Of a stretch of 29,738 bases of DNA, positions 6,933 through 28,565 are shown piece by piece. Each line of letters opens with the position of its first letter. Position 1 is the stretch's first letter. Location of the stretch: positions 1-29,738 of the IMG/VR virus record IMGVR_UViG_3300016667_000431; one strand, given 5' to 3'. The stretch comes from a virus. Lineage: Duplodnaviria; Caudoviricetes. A program made the translations under genes and the position numbers. The notes beneath the pieces are model-generated. The model did not search any database. It was not told the DNA's origin and was given only the letters and a program-made list of their open reading frames with translations.

Positions 6933-7385
6933 ATGAATAATTCTCCAAAGAATCCAAAATATAGACAGGGTATCTTCGTACCTAAGAATCAAAATAAATT
7001 TATAGGTACGAAAGCTATATATAGATCTGGATTAGAATTAAAGTTCTTTCGTTTTTGTGACGAGAATCCTAATATATTAAGGTGGTCCAGTGAGCAAGTC
7101 GTAGTACCGTATATATCTCCTTTAGACGGTAGAGTTCATAGATATTTTGTTGATAACTTCATTATTATCAAAGAAGGTAATGGTGAAGTTAAAAAATATC
7201 TAGTTGAAATTAAACCATCAAAGCAAACACAAGCACCTACCACCAAGTATAAAAAGAAACAACATCTAATTTATGAGCAAACTCAATGGGCTATAAATAG
7301 TAGTAAATGGGAAGCAGCGAGACTATGGGCCAGCAAACATGGAATGACATTTCTAATTTTAACAGAGAAAGATCTACAGGCTTGA
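6933..7385 (+). CDS. Head completion nuclease (T4 gp4-like, TnsA-like fold)
   Basis: QG.F.PKN..K, YRSGLELKF, WSSE..VPY.SP.DG..HRYFVD, LVEIKP, KWEAA, F.ILTEK. Confidence 0.9.
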   Translation: MNNSPKNPKYRQGIFVPKNQNKFIGTKAIYRSGLELKFFRFCDENPNILRWSSEQVVVPYISPLDGRVHRYFVDNFIIIKEGNGEVKKYLVEIKPSKQTQAPTTKYKKKQHLIYEQTQWAINSSKWEAARLWASKHGMTFLILTEKDLQA

Positions 7386-9070
7386 TAAAGACACAGAGAT
7401 TTATTACAAAGTCATCAATCAAACATAATTTTAAGTTTGATTATAGTAAGGTGACATTTACCACAGCAAAGACGAAAGTGGAAATTATATGCCCTATTCA
7501 CGGCTCTTTTATGCAATTGCCAGCTGATCATGTAAGAGGTATAGGTTGTAAGAAGTGTGGGAGAGATACTGCTGTAGAGAAAACTACCAAAAAGTGGGTT
7601 GATGTAGAGAGAGATTTCCGTAAAGTTCATAATGATCTTTACGATTATAAGGTAGATACATATATCAATACATCAACAAAGATGGTAATAGGGTGTAAGA
7701 TACACGGGGAATTTGAACAGACGCCTAGTAACCATCTTCGACATGGTTGCCCTAAGTGTGGAAATATATCAACAAAAACCAAGCAAACATCTAATACTGC
7801 CGAGTTCATTAGAAAGCTGAAATTATTATACGGTGATTTTTATGATTACACAGATATTATATACTATAATAGTAAAACAAAAGTAGAAGTACATTGCCCT
7901 ATACATGGTGAATTTACAGCTACACCAAATTCTCTTCTAAATGGCTCAGGATGCCCTAGTTGTGGTACAATTAAACAAGGTATAACAAAAAAGTTAAACT
8001 ATTTTAAGTTATGGGTAAATGAGATACATCATCGAGATAGTAATATTAGTATTGATGCTCAAGAGTATCAAGGAGTTAATTCAACTGTTACAGGTACATG
8101 TAATAAACATGGAAAGTTTGAAGATGTAGTGATTAATATTAAAACTAGATCTAACGCCTGTATAAAATGCTGTAGTAATGTTTTTTCCAAACCCGAAAAA
8201 ATAATAAGTAAAATATTAGATAACCTTAAGATACAATTCATATCACATTACCGTATTAGGAAAGATAATACATATATAGAGCTTGACTTCTTTTTACCAG
8301 AGTACAATATAGCGATTGAAGTAAATGGAATTTACTGGCATAGAGATCAAGGTACAAGATGTACAAAAGAGTATCATAATACCAAAACTAACATTTGTAT
8401 AGAGAATAATATTCAACTATTACACTTATACGATCAAGAAGTTAATAATAAAACAAGCATCATTGAATCAATTATTAGATCTAAAACCGGTAAAAATACT
8501 AAACGCATATATGCACGTAAAACTATCATAAAGCAAGTAGACTCAGTTACAGCTAATAATTTTTTGGCATTATACCACTTGCAAGGCTCATGTAAATCGC
8601 AAGTATATTACGGACTGTTTACAGCAGATTGTGATGACCTAGTATGTGTAATGGCATTCGGTACGAGGCAGATAACAGGGAAATCGCAACATGAGTTGAT
8701 TAGGTTTGCTACAAAAGCCGACTGCACGGTGATAGGAGGATTTAGTAAAATCTTAGAATATTACAAACATACAATCAAAGCAGGTACTATTGTCACTTAT
8801 GCAGATCGGAGATATAGCTTAGGATCGGTATATTATAAGTGTGGATTTAAACTAATAAATGTATCAAGCCCTTCATATTGGTATTTTAAGTTACCTAATA
8901 CAAAATTGTACCATAGATACAATTTTGCTAAGCACAAATTATCAGGTAAATTGCAAAATTTTGATATAAATTTGACAGAGTGGCAGAATATGAAGAATAA
9001 TAATTACTCGAGAATATGGGACTGCGGCCAATTTGTGTTTGAACTAGCATTTGGCGGTGAGTCTGGCTAA
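7307..9070 (+). CDS. Free-standing Hef-like putative homing endonuclease 1 (Zn-ribbon repeats, Vsr-like nuclease, C-terminal GNAT-like domain)
   Basis: Four CxxHG..F..CxxC repeats; ELDFFLPEYNIAIEVNGIYWH; IYARK...HLQG...ELIRF...YADRRYS.G.VY...GF...IWDCG. The true start may be the in-frame TTG at 7382, overlapping the gp4 stop. Confidence 0.75.
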   Translation: MGSSETMGQQTWNDISNFNRERSTGLIKTQRFITKSSIKHNFKFDYSKVTFTTAKTKVEIICPIHGSFMQLPADHVRGIGCKKCGRDTAVEKTTKKWVDVERDFRKVHNDLYDYKVDTYINTSTKMVIGCKIHGEFEQTPSNHLRHGCPKCGNISTKTKQTSNTAEFIRKLKLLYGDFYDYTDIIYYNSKTKVEVHCPIHGEFTATPNSLLNGSGCPSCGTIKQGITKKLNYFKLWVNEIHHRDSNISIDAQEYQGVNSTVTGTCNKHGKFEDVVINIKTRSNACIKCCSNVFSKPEKIISKILDNLKIQFISHYRIRKDNTYIELDFFLPEYNIAIEVNGIYWHRDQGTRCTKEYHNTKTNICIENNIQLLHLYDQEVNNKTSIIESIIRSKTGKNTKRIYARKTIIKQVDSVTANNFLALYHLQGSCKSQVYYGLFTADCDDLVCVMAFGTRQITGKSQHELIRFATKADCTVIGGFSKILEYYKHTIKAGTIVTYADRRYSLGSVYYKCGFKLINVSSPSYWYFKLPNTKLYHRYNFAKHKLSGKLQNFDINLTEWQNMKNNNYSRIWDCGQFVFELAFGGESG

Positions 9071-9848: not shown

Positions 9849-11504
9849 ATGACTGAAGACACTATATTGAGTAAGCTTGATTGCTCAGCAAAATTGTTTA
9901 AATCAAAGCTCACAAAGCAGGATATAGATTATATATATAGTCTCTGTGTGAGTATCACACAGGAAGACACAAAGACTAAAACGTTAGGTAAGTATATTGC
10001 ATGCTTGAAGCTAGGTATTAGAGAAGATAAGCAGTGTACTGTTTGTAATGAACGTATACCTTATAGAGATTTTAAAACCTATATTAAGCAGTCATTTTGC
10101 TGTATTAATTGTAGAGAAAAACATAGAGGTATTATTAATCTTAATGCGAACAACGCTCTTAAGAATAATAGAGAAGCAGTTCTAAAACGTAAGAGCACAC
10201 TACATAAGATGTATGGTGTTACTAACTCAATGCAACTAGATGCAGTAAAGTCTATAAGGAAGCAGCGCTGTTTTGAGCAGCACGGCGTTGAACATACTTC
10301 ACAACTTATTACTGTTAAGCAAAAGGTTAAACAAACAAATCTTAATAGATATGGTGTGGAGTGTACCTTATTAACTAGTAAAGAAAAGAACTCAGAACAA
10401 AAGAGATCTAAAAAGTTTGACACTCTACAGCAATTAACAAACATAGCGCCAATCTTTAAGAAGGAAGAATACTATGGTATTTTTCATGGTAATTGTAAAA
10501 AGTTTTATCCATTCATATGCAATATATGTAAGAGAGAGTTTAGTGCGCATCTAGGTTCATGGAATACCAATTTAGATAGCTGCCCATACTGCAGTGGTGA
10601 GAGTAATAAATATGAAGATTTTCTAGGTGAATTTCTAGTATCGATAAATGTTCCATATGAACGGAATAATCGCAAGATACTTCAAGGTAAGGAGATTGAT
10701 TTCTTTCTATCACATAAAAATATAGCTATTGAGGTAGATGGTTTATACTATCATAGCACTAAATTTATTAAGCGTAGTGATTATCACTTAGCTAAGACTA
10801 ATATGTGTAAACAGCAGGGTATTTCTCTTATACATGTTTTTGGTGATGAAATTTTGTTTAATATAAAGTCGCTTAAAAATCGCCTACGTAGTGTACTTGG
10901 AAAAAATAAACATACTGTATATGGTAGAAAATGTGAAGTATATCCTATTACCTCAGCCGTAAAGAGTAAATTTCTTAAGAAATATCACATACAGGGTGAT
11001 TGTAATAGTAGTATCAACTTAGGATTATTTTATAAAAAAAGATTATTATCAGTTATGACTTTTGGAAAAAAACGCGTCAGTACAGGTCATAAAGGTATCG
11101 ATGGTGAGTTCGAACTATATCGTTTTTGTAGTATATATAATTTTAACATCTTAGGAGGTGCTTCGAAGTTATTATCATACTTCGAGAAGTATTACCAACC
11201 TACAGAAATTATATCCTTCTGTGATCTCAGATATACATCGACTCTTAAGCGTAATTTATACGAGAGTCTAGGTATGAAACTATGTAAACAGACCTTACCT
11301 AATTACTGGATTGTTAGAGGTAATAAGAGAGAGCATAGATTCTCTTATAGGAAAAGCGTTCTACATAAGAAATTATCGTTATTTGATCCACTTCTATCTG
11401 AAACGCAAAACCTAGAACAAAATAACATTTTTAAGATATATGACTGTGGTAACTTATTATACAGAAAAACATATACACGAGTCAAAGCAATAAGCATTAG
11501 CTGA
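9849..11504 (+). CDS. Free-standing Hef-like putative homing endonuclease 2
   Basis: Zn-finger cysteines, YGV-type repeats, EIDFFLSHKNIAIEVDGLYYHS nuclease motif, C-terminal VYGRKC...HIQG...ELYRFC...GGASKLL...DLRY...IYDCGN domain shared with 7307-9070. Confidence 0.75.
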   Translation: MTEDTILSKLDCSAKLFKSKLTKQDIDYIYSLCVSITQEDTKTKTLGKYIACLKLGIREDKQCTVCNERIPYRDFKTYIKQSFCCINCREKHRGIINLNANNALKNNREAVLKRKSTLHKMYGVTNSMQLDAVKSIRKQRCFEQHGVEHTSQLITVKQKVKQTNLNRYGVECTLLTSKEKNSEQKRSKKFDTLQQLTNIAPIFKKEEYYGIFHGNCKKFYPFICNICKREFSAHLGSWNTNLDSCPYCSGESNKYEDFLGEFLVSINVPYERNNRKILQGKEIDFFLSHKNIAIEVDGLYYHSTKFIKRSDYHLAKTNMCKQQGISLIHVFGDEILFNIKSLKNRLRSVLGKNKHTVYGRKCEVYPITSAVKSKFLKKYHIQGDCNSSINLGLFYKKRLLSVMTFGKKRVSTGHKGIDGEFELYRFCSIYNFNILGGASKLLSYFEKYYQPTEIISFCDLRYTSTLKRNLYESLGMKLCKQTLPNYWIVRGNKREHRFSYRKSVLHKKLSLFDPLLSETQNLEQNNIFKIYDCGNLLYRKTYTRVKAISIS

Positions 11505-19306: not shown

Positions 19307-20485
19307 TTATGCTGTTACTACAGTCCACCCCTTATTAGTAGCGATGAGTAGGTCGGCTGCTGATAGAGATGATGTGCCTATATTAAGACCAACATCAATA
19401 GTCTGACTCGTAGCTGTCCCTAAATTATTAAATATATCAATAATCTGTAAACGAGAAAGAGCACAACCTCTATAAGAGATACTGAATTTTGTACCAGAAA
19501 GAGGGGCTGAGTGGAGAGATGGACAACCACTAAATATAGAACCAAAATTACCCGTTGTTACAGCAGATGTATTTAGAGCTGGAACTGTTTGTAGACTAAA
19601 GCAGTTCTGAAACATACTCTGCATATTAGTTACAGCACCTGTATTAAATAGTGGAACTGTTTGTAGACTATAGCAGAATTGGAACATACTCGACATATTA
19701 GTTACAGCAGATGTATTAAATAGTGGAACTGTCTGTAAACTACAACAGTTATAAAACATCTGCTGCATAGTAGTTACAGCAGCTGTATTAAATAGTGGTA
19801 CTGTCTGTAGACTATGGCAGTTATCAAACATATACTGCATATTAGTTGCAGCAGAAGTACTTCTAATACTAATATCCTGCAACGATCTAAAAGCTTGAAA
19901 TTTATATGAATAATCTGTAATAGTTCCCGTTACCCCAATATTAACTCTTTCACAGAAAGATAAATAAGATGTTCCTCCTCCAATAGACAGAGATGTTAAG
20001 TTTGGGCTATTTAGTGATATATCTAAATAATTGGTAGTGTAATTATTATTGAGACCTGTATATAACTGTTGTAAATTTATGCTGGTTAAATTTTGACCCG
20101 ATTGAGGAGTTACTATAACTAAAACCTGCCGAGCAACAACACCCGTTGTTAACTCAAATTCTGTGGAAGCAGAGATAGAACTAAATGTATACTTATGTTG
20201 TGCTTTTACTCCCGAAGATATATTTTCTATATTACCATCTCCCCAATCAACAGTATAATTACCGCTACACATTAGAGCGATATACTGAGAATCATCATTA
20301 GTAACAGCAACTAATCCTACAAACTTCTGATCGGTATCAGCTAATGTAGGCATAGGCAACCATAGAGGATTTCTTACCCAATTTTGTACAACAGTTCTAT
20401 CTGTTGACATTACACTGTTTGATCTACCAGCATATGAAGCAATTCTGCCAATGCCTGTTGAGCCTAATTTAAGTACTGATCCCAT
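19307..20485 (-). CDS. BspA/DUF285-like repeat surface protein with a PKD-like VDWGDG motif
   Basis: YTVDWGDG; four 24 aa repeats NMxxMFxxCxSLQTVPLFNTxAVT; C-terminal IATNKGWTV. Confidence 0.8.
   Translation of the reverse strand: MGSVLKLGSTGIGRIASYAGRSNSVMSTDRTVVQNWVRNPLWLPMPTLADTDQKFVGLVAVTNDDSQYIALMCSGNYTVDWGDGNIENISSGVKAQHKYTFSSISASTEFELTTGVVARQVLVIVTPQSGQNLTSINLQQLYTGLNNNYTTNYLDISLNSPNLTSLSIGGGTSYLSFCERVNIGVTGTITDYSYKFQAFRSLQDISIRSTSAATNMQYMFDNCHSLQTVPLFNTAAVTTMQQMFYNCCSLQTVPLFNTSAVTNMSSMFQFCYSLQTVPLFNTGAVTNMQSMFQNCFSLQTVPALNTSAVTTGNFGSIFSGCPSLHSAPLSGTKFSISYRGCALSRLQIIDIFNNLGTATSQTIDVGLNIGTSSLSAADLLIATNKGWTVVTA
19556..19843 (-). repeat. Four tandem 72-bp coding repeats
   Basis: Units NMQYMFDNCHSLQTVPLFNTAAVT / TMQQMFYNCCS... 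/ NMSSMFQFCYS... / NMQSMFQNCFS... Confidence 0.9.
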
Positions 20486-22492: not shown

Positions 22493-23413
22493 TTATTGCT
22501 TTGGCGTCTTAACATGCGAAATAGTATGATCGCTTAACGCATAATGTAGTAAGTGCTCATCTGAAGCGCGCTCTGGATTAATATCCCAACCACCACGACG
22601 AGCGTATAAGCAACGAACGACAAGCTGATCCGGTTGAACAATATCATGGAGTCGCTTATAAATCGCTTCACAGATCTCTTCATGGAAGTGACACTCATCG
22701 CGAAATGAAACGATATACTTAAGAAGTGACATTGGATGTACTGTACGTTTACCCTTCATATAGATATAAACATCACCACTATCTGGCTGAGCAGTTACAC
22801 GACAGCGACTACGTAGAAGTGCGCTATGATATGATACTTCTTCAATTTCTGAATCAATTACTTCTAGTAGTTCAGGAGTTTCAGTATACACATCAAATAC
22901 TTCACCCTCAGTAGGATATTCAGTCTCTAGAGTAATATACTCATTATGATCCCACTCTTTAAATGGTGCAGTATCATCACCTAGAACATAATCATTACTA
23001 CATACACGAACTCGTACATCAGTCTCTAGAAGCTCAGAAAGATCTTTTGCAGCAGTCTCTTCTAGCGCATTACGAATTTCTTCAACAGTATCACCAAGCT
23101 TAGTCATACTAAACGAATTAAAGTATAGCTTCATCGACTTCGACTCGACAATATACTTACTATCACATGAGTATACAACCTTTGCAATACATACAACCGG
23201 TAGTCCAGAATTAGTGAGAGTGGTTACCTCATAACCATTCCAGGTATCGTATCCTAAGAATGGTAAATTATGATCATCAAGCTCTAGATGAACGCGATTA
23301 GACTGTCGTGGTTCACGAACCAAAAGTGAAGGATCATAGATGCAAGCATATTCAGAATTCTTACCTAGGTGCTTACTTACGTTTGAGTTATCTGGATTAT
23401 CGTTAAGGGCCAT
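22493..23413 (-). CDS. queF: NADPH-dependent preQ0 reductase, bimodular (E. coli-type) QueF
   Basis: YDPSLL, QueF motif IVESKSMKLYFNSF, catalytic Cys in LLRSRCRVTAQPDSG, FHEEICE, YARRGGWDINP. Confidence 0.92.
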   Translation of the reverse strand: MALNDNPDNSNVSKHLGKNSEYACIYDPSLLVREPRQSNRVHLELDDHNLPFLGYDTWNGYEVTTLTNSGLPVVCIAKVVYSCDSKYIVESKSMKLYFNSFSMTKLGDTVEEIRNALEETAAKDLSELLETDVRVRVCSNDYVLGDDTAPFKEWDHNEYITLETEYPTEGEVFDVYTETPELLEVIDSEIEEVSYHSALLRSRCRVTAQPDSGDVYIYMKGKRTVHPMSLLKYIVSFRDECHFHEEICEAIYKRLHDIVQPDQLVVRCLYARRGGWDINPERASDEHLLHYALSDHTISHVKTPKQ

Positions 23414-23435: not shown

Positions 23436-23990
23436 TTATTTTACAATGTTAAAAGTCTTAAAAATAGTTTCAATCTGTTTCATTCGTTCCTCAACAGACC
23501 CTTTAAGCGTTACAATTTTGTCTGTGGGTACAAATCGTTTGTATTGATCAAATAATTCAATAATTTCATTTCGAAAGTCAATATCTACAGACCGTTCCCC
23601 ATCGTCAACTAACTGCACATCGTTTGGTTCTGGATACAGAATACAATCATAACGATCAATAGTTGCATTAAAGACACTACGAGCATGAGTATATACATCC
23701 ATCGTTACATGTCTTTTATTGCATAGCCAATGTGTGTATACAATACCATCTAGAGAGCAGCGATCTAAAACACAATCTTTCGTCCGATTAATAAAAGCAT
23801 TATGCATATGCATGCTCATAATCATAGTCTGAGTAATGTTATTACCTTCTTCATTAATAGGTAGATTATACTCACGCTTAACTAAACGAGTCACTTCTGG
23901 TACATACTCTAAATGCTGAAACTTAGTTTGACACTCCTTTAAGAGTGTAGTTTTACCAGTTGATTGCGCACCTGAAAAGGAAATTATCAT
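23436..23990 (-). CDS. P-loop nucleotide monophosphate kinase-like protein (AAA_28/NadR/thymidylate-kinase-like)
   Basis: SGAQSTGKTTL, VLDRCSLDGIVY, DDGERS, LKGSVEER. Confidence 0.8.
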   Translation of the reverse strand: MIISFSGAQSTGKTTLLKECQTKFQHLEYVPEVTRLVKREYNLPINEEGNNITQTMIMSMHMHNAFINRTKDCVLDRCSLDGIVYTHWLCNKRHVTMDVYTHARSVFNATIDRYDCILYPEPNDVQLVDDGERSVDIDFRNEIIELFDQYKRFVPTDKIVTLKGSVEERMKQIETIFKTFNIVK

Positions 23991-23999
23991 ATAATAGTA

Positions 24000-24539
24000 T
24001 TATAGTTTAGTTCCTAAAAATTCAACCCAAGCCTTAAATGATGTGTCTTTAAGAGTATCGAATGTTGCATCAAGTGAATCACATTTAGCATTACTTACCA
24101 TGCTATATGTAATTACATCACCAGCATCAACTTCAGGTACAACTTTATGTACAACGCTACCAACATATAGATAACGTCCAATATTATCCCATGCTCTCAC
24201 TTGCGGATCTTTACCTTTAAGCTCAGGATGGTAGTTAATTAATCCGGGATGACCGTTATACAACTTAAACTGATTGCAAATAGTCGCTGGTACAATATTT
24301 AACCAACCATGCAACGTTACAAGATCATACTCTTTAATCCACGATTTAAAATAATCGAGTTTTTCGCTATCTGTTAAACCTCGATACTTTCGTTTCTGTA
24401 CGAAAGCACTATTGCTGATACGACTATCAATTTCACCGGTGATATTATCAGTCACAATAAGGTCAGGATATCGACCAAGATGCTCTGATAGATTACATAT
24501 CTCACTACCCGTCTGACTAAAAAGAGCTGCCCATTTCAT
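24000..24539 (-). CDS. PurN-like formyltransferase, candidate DpdN
   Basis: ALFSQTGSE, LHGWLNIVP, YNGHPGLI..HPELKGKDPQ, GSVVHKV.PEVDAG (N/H/D catalytic residues of the GART fold). Confidence 0.8.
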   Translation of the reverse strand: MKWAALFSQTGSEICNLSEHLGRYPDLIVTDNITGEIDSRISNSAFVQKRKYRGLTDSEKLDYFKSWIKEYDLVTLHGWLNIVPATICNQFKLYNGHPGLINYHPELKGKDPQVRAWDNIGRYLYVGSVVHKVVPEVDAGDVITYSMVSNAKCDSLDATFDTLKDTSFKAWVEFLGTKL

Positions 24540-24543
24540 ATAA

Positions 24544-25341
24544 TTAACCTACAATAGCACGAAACTCATCGACGTTATGAATAATATCCTGCATTTCATC
24601 CGCACTAACTTCGTGATCGATTAGATCAGCTAGCTTAACCGATGGCTTACTATTCAACCCGATTTCTCTAATGTAACGAAGACCTTTAATACCTGCTACA
24701 ATAGGATTCGAAGTATCTACAGATCGAATGCTTGGAATTGATTTATAATTTTTAAATTCTCTAGCTAGCGATGCACCGAGTAGATGGTGTGGCTTATCTT
24801 TATTCCAAAAGCCATCCGCGATAAGACTTTCAATAAGATATTGACGACCAGTGCAGTATCGTTCAAGCTTACCACGATCATCACGATAAGTTGAATAACC
24901 TACAGCTTGATACCATGAATAGTCGAAAGAGATTGCAATATAATCGGCATTTTCTGACATAAACTTATAACACTCAACTAACTCCTGATATGTTTTACCT
25001 TGTACAACGCCGATTTTAAGACCAGGTAGATCTGGATATTCTGATACAAACTTCTTAAACGATTCAATCGTACCTCGAGTATCTTCAAGTACATCCGGTA
25101 CTACATAGAACGTTGGTTTAAGTTCCTCAACATATTCAGCAAACTTTGATGAATCAAATGCTGTGCCTAACTCGAAGATTGAGTTATCTAGAAGGACTTC
25201 ACGTCCCATAGCAAGTGTACGCTTAAAAAATGAGTGATATTCAGGATGTGTTTCTAGTAGGTGTACTAGACAATAATCGTAGTCATTATAGTGAATAGAA
25301 TGATCTAGAATACTGATCGGTGATTCATGGCTGATTAGCAT
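24544..25341 (-). CDS. TGT-fold transglycosylase-like protein, candidate DpdA (DpdA3-like)
   Basis: TGT-like motifs in order: LLDNS, VPDV, GVVQG, PHHLLG, SVDTS; no CxCxxC Zn site; ATG 25341 (MLISHESP) preferred over TTG 25365, which lies inside the promoter. Confidence 0.7.
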   Translation of the reverse strand: MLISHESPISILDHSIHYNDYDYCLVHLLETHPEYHSFFKRTLAMGREVLLDNSIFELGTAFDSSKFAEYVEELKPTFYVVPDVLEDTRGTIESFKKFVSEYPDLPGLKIGVVQGKTYQELVECYKFMSENADYIAISFDYSWYQAVGYSTYRDDRGKLERYCTGRQYLIESLIADGFWNKDKPHHLLGASLAREFKNYKSIPSIRSVDTSNPIVAGIKGLRYIREIGLNSKPSVKLADLIDHEVSADEMQDIIHNVDEFRAIVG

Positions 25342-27935: not shown

Positions 27936-28565
27936 TTATACAATTTCGTCAACTAAGCCTAATTCTAAGCAAGTCGAACTATCAAACCATAAATCTCGTT
28001 TTAGGATTTCATCAATCTTCTTCATTGGAACCTTAGTGTATTCCTTGTAGATTGCTTTAATGGTTTGCATTAGATGAGCATTATTTTCCATATCATCTTG
28101 AAGCTCGGTATATTTACCATAAGAGCCAGCGGATAACTGGTGAATAAGCATCTTTGAATATTTACCGATATAGCGTCGCTTACAAGCTACTGAGATAATA
28201 GTAGCAGCAGAAGCTGCAGCACCTTCTACGTAAGAATGTACCTCACAACCTAGGTTACGAATAACATCAACAGTAGCTAAACCAGCAAAGAGAGAGCCAC
28301 CGTATGAGTTAATATGAAGTTTAATTACTGGTTTTGCATCAACAAAAACTCTCATTACAGAAAGTTTCTTATCGACCTCATGTAGAGCAGTGTTGAGCTC
28401 TAGCGCGTTTGCTTCAGTAATATCACCATAAAAGTAAATATTATTCTCGACAATACGCGTAACATTACCTCCCTGAACAGGCATACTGGCGTTAATAATT
28501 AGGGGTGGTTGAGATGCTGCTGGTTGAGCATCATCTTCTGAGTTTGTAATGTATTTCCATTTCAT
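27936..28565 (-). CDS. ClpP-like protease
   Basis: IYFYGDI, LHINSYGGSLFAG, GAAASAATII (Ser), MLIHQL (His), DLWFD..CLELGLVDEI. Confidence 0.85.
   Translation of the reverse strand: MKWKYITNSEDDAQPAASQPPLIINASMPVQGGNVTRIVENNIYFYGDITEANALELNTALHEVDKKLSVMRVFVDAKPVIKLHINSYGGSLFAGLATVDVIRNLGCEVHSYVEGAAASAATIISVACKRRYIGKYSKMLIHQLSAGSYGKYTELQDDMENNAHLMQTIKAIYKEYTKVPMKKIDEILKRDLWFDSSTCLELGLVDEIV

Follow-up and report, generated by a model that had tools for sequence, protein, structure and literature searches.

A P-loop kinase accompanies DpdA3 in phage 7-deazaguanine clusters and may act in a pre-replicative route of guanine replacement

All 7-deazaguanine modifications of DNA are proposed in the main text of Cui 2023 (PMC10516641) to arise after replication. 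Bacterial DpdA acts on DNA and carries a zinc site of the form CXCX2CX22H (PMC10164549, in the part available), and replacement by DpdA1, DpdA2 and bacterial DpdA is partial (0.1-30%; PMC10516641, main text). Replacement of G is complete in the Firehammervirus and immuto groups, and fdPreQ1 stands in place of all G in the DNA of Flavobacterium phage immuto_2-6A; the bases measured in DpdA3 phages are dADG, dDG and fdPreQ1 (PMC10516641, main text). According to the same text, attempts to obtain DpdA3 activity in E. coli failed; it also cites the detection of ADG nucleoside in the cytoplasm of CP220-infected cells. It uses the word 'kinase' 0 times, gives no role for the kinase gene, and leaves phiST CGPG_00066 out of consideration on the ground that other phages lack it. 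Before the discovery of DpdA3, a pre-replicative, polymerase-level route had already been put forward for Campylobacter phages (PMC6884629, in the part available). No published role for the kinase described below was found in the literature covered, with most subscription journals and the supplements of Cui 2023 outside that coverage.

The window, the whole stretch of 29,738 nt analysed here, comes from a T4-like phage and includes genes for the portal, the gp23 capsid protein, head closure and the alpha subunit of ribonucleotide reductase (RNR). A run of four genes on its minus strand (dpdA3-dpdN-kinase-queF; intergenic gaps of 4, 9 and 22 nt) encodes a predicted TGT-fold guanine transglycosylase of 265 aa (dpdA3, 24544..25341), a PurN-fold formyltransferase of 179 aa that is a predicted preQ1 formylase (dpdN, 24000..24539), a P-loop nucleoside/nucleotide kinase of 184 aa (23436..23990) and a bimodular preQ0 reductase of 306 aa, which makes preQ1 (queF, 22493..23413). 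The first-pass annotation had placed a P-loop protein between the formyltransferase and queF, and this is where it lies, 9 nt after the former and 22 nt before the latter. Immuto_2-6A has the four genes in identical order, with 50% (DpdA3), 48% (DpdN), 32% (kinase) and 47% (QueF) identity to the window; the window cluster therefore extends the known DpdA3/DpdN system by one member, and fdPreQ1 is the predicted DNA base of this phage. In immuto, MazG, a phosphoribosyltransferase (PRTase) and a family A polymerase are close by, whereas the window cluster lies among structural genes.

DpdN matched Pfam PF00551 just above the cut-off and carries the motifs NGHP and VHKVVPEVDAG; as expected of a DpdA3/DpdN fdPreQ1 system, this formyltransferase of the PurN fold is short and is encoded together with a DpdA and a QueF. 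QueF matched Pfam QueF_N and QueF above the cut-off and scored 228.8 bits with TIGR03138, below its cut-off of 293. FolE, QueD, QueE and QueC were not found in the 29.7-kb window; QueC is present in 5/5 close genomes and FolE in 4/5. Elsewhere in the window, two homing-endonuclease-like genes (phrog_559 and phrog_3339; 7307-9070 and 9849-11504) lie within the head gene block, the gene for a DUF285/BspA-type repeat protein (19307-20485) has tail-fibre-like genes around it, and the gene next to RNR alpha codes for a ClpP-like protease (27936-28565).

DpdA3 is 265 aa long if translation starts at the ATG (25341) and 273 aa if it starts at an upstream TTG; it matches phrog_19058 (E 3e-65) and is 47-48% identical to Firehammervirus proteins. 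Its conserved residues are D52, D83, Q114 and D209; the three aspartates are invariant in 7 distant members and were matched to D95, D130 and D256 of DpdA by motif order, not by superposed coordinates. The structure model shows an ordinary TGT barrel (Z 17.8 with archaeal TGT, 17.4 with DpdA). Sequence-only PDB searches with DpdA3 and with the single kinase gave no significant match, and neither did a profile comparison of DpdA3 with DpdA1. The protein had been described as short (265 aa) and lacking the Zn site, which is true, and the loss had been taken as a pointer to a nucleotide-level substrate, which does not follow: the CxCxxC motif occurred in 0/103 DpdA3 homologs and 0/80 DpdA3, and also in 0/80 of the DNA-acting phage DpdA1. 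Because DpdA1 also lacks the motif, the zinc argument cannot separate DpdA3 from it; net charge, tried as another sign of a non-polymer substrate, was likewise rejected, DpdA1 being the same. To our knowledge, every characterised member of the TGT fold acts on polymers.

The kinase has its Walker A motif (GAQSTGKT) at residues 7-14, and matched Pfam AAA_28 above the cut-off (E 4.8e-14) and phrog_2107, annotated 'thymidylate kinase' (E 9.2e-24), but not PF02223 (thymidylate kinase, TMPK) or PF01712 (deoxynucleoside kinase, dNK). Its structure model (pLDDT 91) was nearest to the ribosylnicotinamide kinase domain of NadR (Z 18.5, rmsd 2.8, 173 aligned), followed by human dGK (Z 16.5), dCK (16.2) and TMPK (16.1), with Foldseek concordant. 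As in TMPK, an NMP-kinase fold, a Walker A and a DR motif are present. The first-pass term 'monophosphate-kinase-like' fits a P-loop kinase, but its monophosphate part is less certain, the nearest solved fold, NadR, being a nucleoside kinase.

In a conservation set of 124 kinases (the window protein and 123 of 150 listed homologs), G7, G12, K13, R35, Q54, R77, D81, D130 and R133 were invariant (124/124). E32 aligns with the Glu after strand 2 that we take to be the general base of deoxynucleoside kinases; it is present in 91/91 close and 93/124 wide homologs, and replaced in 31/124 and in CP220. The acidic P-loop residue and the thymine-binding Arg that are presumably specific to TMPK align with Q9 and H61. 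In a profile alignment to Aquifex TMPK, position 9 was Q in 89/124 and H in 25/124, and H61 was kept in 114/124; with the TMPK-specific residues replaced, the label 'thymidylate kinase' is unsupported. Three fixed arginines (R35, R77, R133), next to a base that the family can lose, speak for a monophosphate acceptor, and the NadR-like fold, together with an ahcY-kinase-metK context of distant homologs in Patescibacteria, speaks for a nucleoside; on balance a monophosphate is somewhat favoured.

A search of 50,697 phage records with the kinase gave 21 matches, all in Firehammervirus or immuto, three of them being a paralog beside a dUTPase. In the six isolate DpdA3 loci that were opened, a P-loop kinase stood within two genes in 6/6, the slot being filled by three PHROG families: 2107 (CP220, immuto), 19196 (phiST, MA9V-3) and 761 (BSP7, Youna2). 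PhiST CGPG_00066 is itself a P-loop kinase (AAA_18 above the cut-off). Across four phiST-type loci the kinase was adjacent, two genes off, or the C-terminal part of a larger protein, the N-terminus of which resembles DpdL by eye.

Among the best 80 of 549 DpdA3 matches in IMG/VR, a kinase was found in 80/80 (79/80 by a stricter 8-kb count), many of them without dpdN; among the best 80 of 315 kinase matches, queF was found in 80/80 and dpdA3 in 70/80, the remaining 10 having less than 1.8 kb upstream; these locus counts are not independent, because most loci belong to related T4-like phages. In the pooled DpdA3 loci, a redundant set mostly selected via the kinase, a kinase match lay within 8 kb in 217/220 and in 34/36 clusters at 60% identity. 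Since the kinase is present in 80/80 DpdA3-selected loci and many of these are without dpdN, it is tied to DpdA3 and not to the formyltransferase. The co-occurrence check suggested in the first-pass annotation therefore supports its proposal as regards DpdA3 (80/80 of the best 80 loci, fusions, joint replacement). DpdN being optional and the kinase not, the PurN fold of the formyltransferase, offered earlier as an argument for a nucleotide route, says little. Kinase and DpdA3 distances were correlated (Mantel r 0.51), which cannot separate co-evolution from shared descent.

Among 10 long kinase homologs examined, fusions with DpdN (P0364), QueF (kinase-QueF, P0370), QueC (kinase-QueC, P0372) and a dUTPase occurred once each, and fusions with a GNAT domain three times. 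In another protein (P0334, L299:9980-11341) the kinase is fused to a 270-aa domain without a Pfam match, within a queC-dpdA3-dpdN-kinase-queF cluster. Gene spacing varied: in one sub-lineage (L007, L033, L035, L039, L062, L130, L142) dpdA3 stands apart from dpdN-kinase-queF, with 6-7 kb of other genes in between, and in another (L028, L032, L034) a gap of roughly 350 nt lies between dpdN and the kinase. Two loci (L257:6311-15841 and L258:1618-11411) read PRTase-folE-mazG-dpdA3-[kinase:GNAT fusion]-queF-polA, without dpdN; an acetyltransferase in the formyltransferase's place would give an acetyl-preQ1 base.

A natural swap was observed in Firehammervirus CC_R7 (PQ092953.1; L373, L374), which is 79.3% similar to CP220 (PMC12398825, in the part available). 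CC_R7 is without the HD/P-loop-dpdA3-kinase block of CP220, the flanks being 87-94% identical, and has elsewhere the order queC-dpdA3-kinase-DNA polymerase; the corresponding site of CP220 holds the polymerase and a queC-like gene of 74% identity, but neither dpdA3 nor kinase. A joint loss of DpdA3 and kinase was ruled out, since PHROGs revealed the ORF at the new site as a divergent DpdA3 (phrog_19058, E 5e-10) with all three aspartates kept. This DpdA3 is 31% and the kinase 28% identical to those of CP220, against 95-100% for five neighbours, and the paralogous kinase is 92.5% identical (vs IBB35). DpdA3 and kinase were thus replaced as a unit while the housekeeping-type paralog stayed, in what is one event, and the base of CC_R7 may be other than dADG. 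The available part of PMC12398825 holds no discussion of the dpdA3-kinase swap. In CP220 the gene immediately before dpdA3 (L002:8050-9081), which CC_R7 lacks together with dpdA3, encodes a fusion of an HD domain with a P-loop domain, a candidate nucleotide hydrolase.

The kinase queries matched 0/80 DpdA1 loci, and a loose P-loop pattern occurred in 2/80. The gene lists of the DpdA2-type QueF clusters in VH7D and pf16, and of the QueF cluster in 2.275.O, contain no kinase, VH7D having a weak kinase match only, 47 kb from the cluster; none of 46 Vibrio records with a QueF homolog was among the kinase matches. Two DpdA3-like genes are without an adjacent kinase, in L164 (StAshley), which has only a dNMP kinase 6 kb off, and in L169. 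When the kinase scan was widened, the best 80 of 452 matches included 71 loci with dpdA3, 74 with some deazaguanine gene and 6 with none, so that in phages the kinase is not equally common without deazaguanine genes, an outcome that would have spoken against the first-pass proposal. The six deazaguanine-free viral loci are small phages with a kinase and GNAT, two of the records being 95-99% complete. DpdA3 was not found in five of the small-phage records by two profile searches or by a PHROG scan that covered 18 of the ORFs of one of them (G004); as a profile search had missed the DpdA3 of CC_R7, the result means none found by these searches. In these records (L259-L263, L267; G001-G005), of up to 29 kb, the kinase and a small GNAT-like gene lie near the terminase.

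Bacterial kinase homologs (25-34% identity) had deazaguanine genes at 0/36 loci. In Patescibacteria (L332-L334), ahcY (SAH hydrolase) stood directly upstream in 3/3 loci inspected and metK (SAM synthetase) downstream in 2/3, which suggests an adenosine or AMP salvage kinase. Campylobacter phages have a second kinase paralog beside the dUTPase, in addition to the kinase-dUTPase fusion noted above.

From the sequence comparisons, we put at roughly 55% the probability that the kinase phosphorylates a 7-deaza-dG building block (deoxynucleotide or deoxynucleoside) in a pre-replicative route. More tentatively, and a little short of even odds, DpdA3 would exchange bases on free nucleotides, and DpdA3 and a dedicated kinase would form the mobile two-gene core of pre-replicative guanine replacement, tuned per base and served by tailoring enzymes that can be exchanged for one another, among them an acetyltransferase fused to the kinase that would give acetyl-preQ1, an undescribed base. 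QueF, by the established activity of its family, would make preQ1 from preQ0; DpdA3 would then put this preQ1 in place of the guanine on a free dG nucleotide, in the simplest case dGMP. Formylation of the amine by DpdN would come either before incorporation or after it. Deaza-dGMP, on which host guanylate kinase presumably acts poorly, would be raised to the diphosphate by the phage kinase and then to the triphosphate by host Ndk, and replication would build the modified G into DNA from this triphosphate. Some hydrolase would have to keep dGTP low, in some lineages possibly MazG or a protein of the dUTPase fold.

The points counted for a pre-replicative route are the linkage to DpdA3, the three PHROG families, the fusions, the CC_R7 swap, the fixed arginines, the failed expression of DpdA3 in E. 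coli and the ADG nucleoside in the cytoplasm. Counted against it are the TGT fold, the deazaguanine-free homologs, the paralog at the dUTPase, the DpdA3-like loci without a kinase, the absence of MazG, the relatedness of the loci and a nucleoside kinase as the nearest fold. The nucleotide-level route of the first-pass annotation therefore has the support of co-occurrence, fusions and joint replacement in CC_R7; its Zn-site argument failed, and its formyltransferase-fold argument carries little weight.

The dGTP-depleting enzyme that had been predicted elsewhere in the genome was not borne out as MazG, which was not found in 5/5 close genomes. Near dpdA3, MazG occurred at 8 loci and a dUTPase/dCTP-deaminase fold at 23, never both. 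The gene for the latter fold in MazG-less DpdA3 clusters (L268, L274, L283, L288, L167, L168, L005) encodes a candidate dGTP hydrolase. As the dGTPase of the window lineage this fold was rejected, with weak matches in 2/5 close genomes and also in VH7D. Adjacency to MazG was weak as a DpdA3-specific trait, MazG being also beside DpdA2 in pf16, and adjacency to a polymerase was rejected as evidence, DpdA1 clusters also abutting a polymerase.

Joint replacement with DpdA3 is also predicted if DpdA3 swaps bases in finished DNA and the kinase recycles modified nucleosides or nucleotides from proofreading, repair and turnover. That account, which we regard as rather unlikely, agrees with the TGT fold with all catalytic aspartates, the DNA substrate of bacterial DpdA (PMC10164549), the post-replicative proposal for all these modifications (PMC10516641) and the salvage nucleoside kinase as nearest fold; yet no such kinase accompanies DpdA1 and DpdA2, whose clusters produce similar bases after replication, and near-universal retention with three kinase families resembles an essential step, not housekeeping. 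The paralog beside the dUTPase in Campylobacter phages, the kinase-dUTPase fusion, the homologs without deazaguanine genes, the phrog_2107 annotation with the TMPK fold (Z 16.1), and the distance correlation (r 0.51), as shared descent predicts, would all suit an ordinary dNMP-supply kinase, annotated as thymidylate kinase and kept beside dpdA3 by inherited gene order. This is improbable: the pair was moved and replaced jointly in CC_R7 with the conserved paralog in place, unrelated phage lineages fill the slot with different kinase families, and Q9 and H61 stand where we take TMPK to have its P-loop acid and thymine-binding Arg.

Still more doubtful is a pre-replicative route through ribonucleotides or a phosphoribosyltransferase, in which the kinase would turn deaza-GMP into the diphosphate and the phage ribonucleotide reductase would give the deoxy form. 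DpdA3 has a PRTase no more than 10 kb away in 11/36 clusters, and immuto also has one, but PRT matches also occur in 9/85 DpdA1 loci, many matches are weak, and guanine recycling explains a PRTase under any route; the RNR alpha gene 3 kb away in the window, and the DpdN fold, which acts on a ribonucleotide, would fit. Kinases that act on 5-hmdU in DNA function in thymidine hypermodification, and P-loop kinases of phage modification clusters can act on the polymer. By analogy the kinase could activate the base on DNA, which is highly improbable: dDG, the base of phiST, is without a side chain to activate, yet a kinase stands beside phiST dpdA3, and the fold is that of a small-molecule kinase. 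Phages with the kinase end up with different bases (dADG, dDG, fdPreQ1), so a shared side-chain role is unlikely.

Phosphorylation of a 7-deaza-dG building block before replication remains the preferred reading. The missing kinase step, if true, would explain the failure to reconstitute DpdA3, the family replacing every G; the TGT fold would gain its first small-molecule substrate; and a short gene set would be at hand for 7-deaza-dGTP analogues and for fully G-substituted, restriction-resistant DNA in cells. The cluster belongs to a known system, of which one constant part, the kinase, has been overlooked and challenges the published mechanism.

The Z-genome (2-aminoadenine) pathway of PurZ, MazZ and DatZ achieves complete purine replacement through a nucleotide-level enzyme and pool control. 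The guanine route would follow the same logic with a different base and different enzymes; the Z-genome route has been demonstrated, whereas the guanine route is one that we infer. DpdA1, DpdA2 and bacterial DpdA share the TGT barrel and the three catalytic aspartates with DpdA3, but are longer (about 300-460 aa) and have no kinase partner. Compared with known kinases, the window kinase differs from TMPK in the replacement of the TMPK-specific residues and probably from dNK, the Glu that aligns with the dNK base being replaced in part of its family. NadR, for which the available part of PMC7221760 names no catalytic base, shares the Walker A, ExxR and DDGxR motifs with the window kinase but has DT where the kinase has DR, and the kinase is a single domain in a deazaguanine cluster, without the NMN adenylyltransferase or the NAD-salvage context of NadR.
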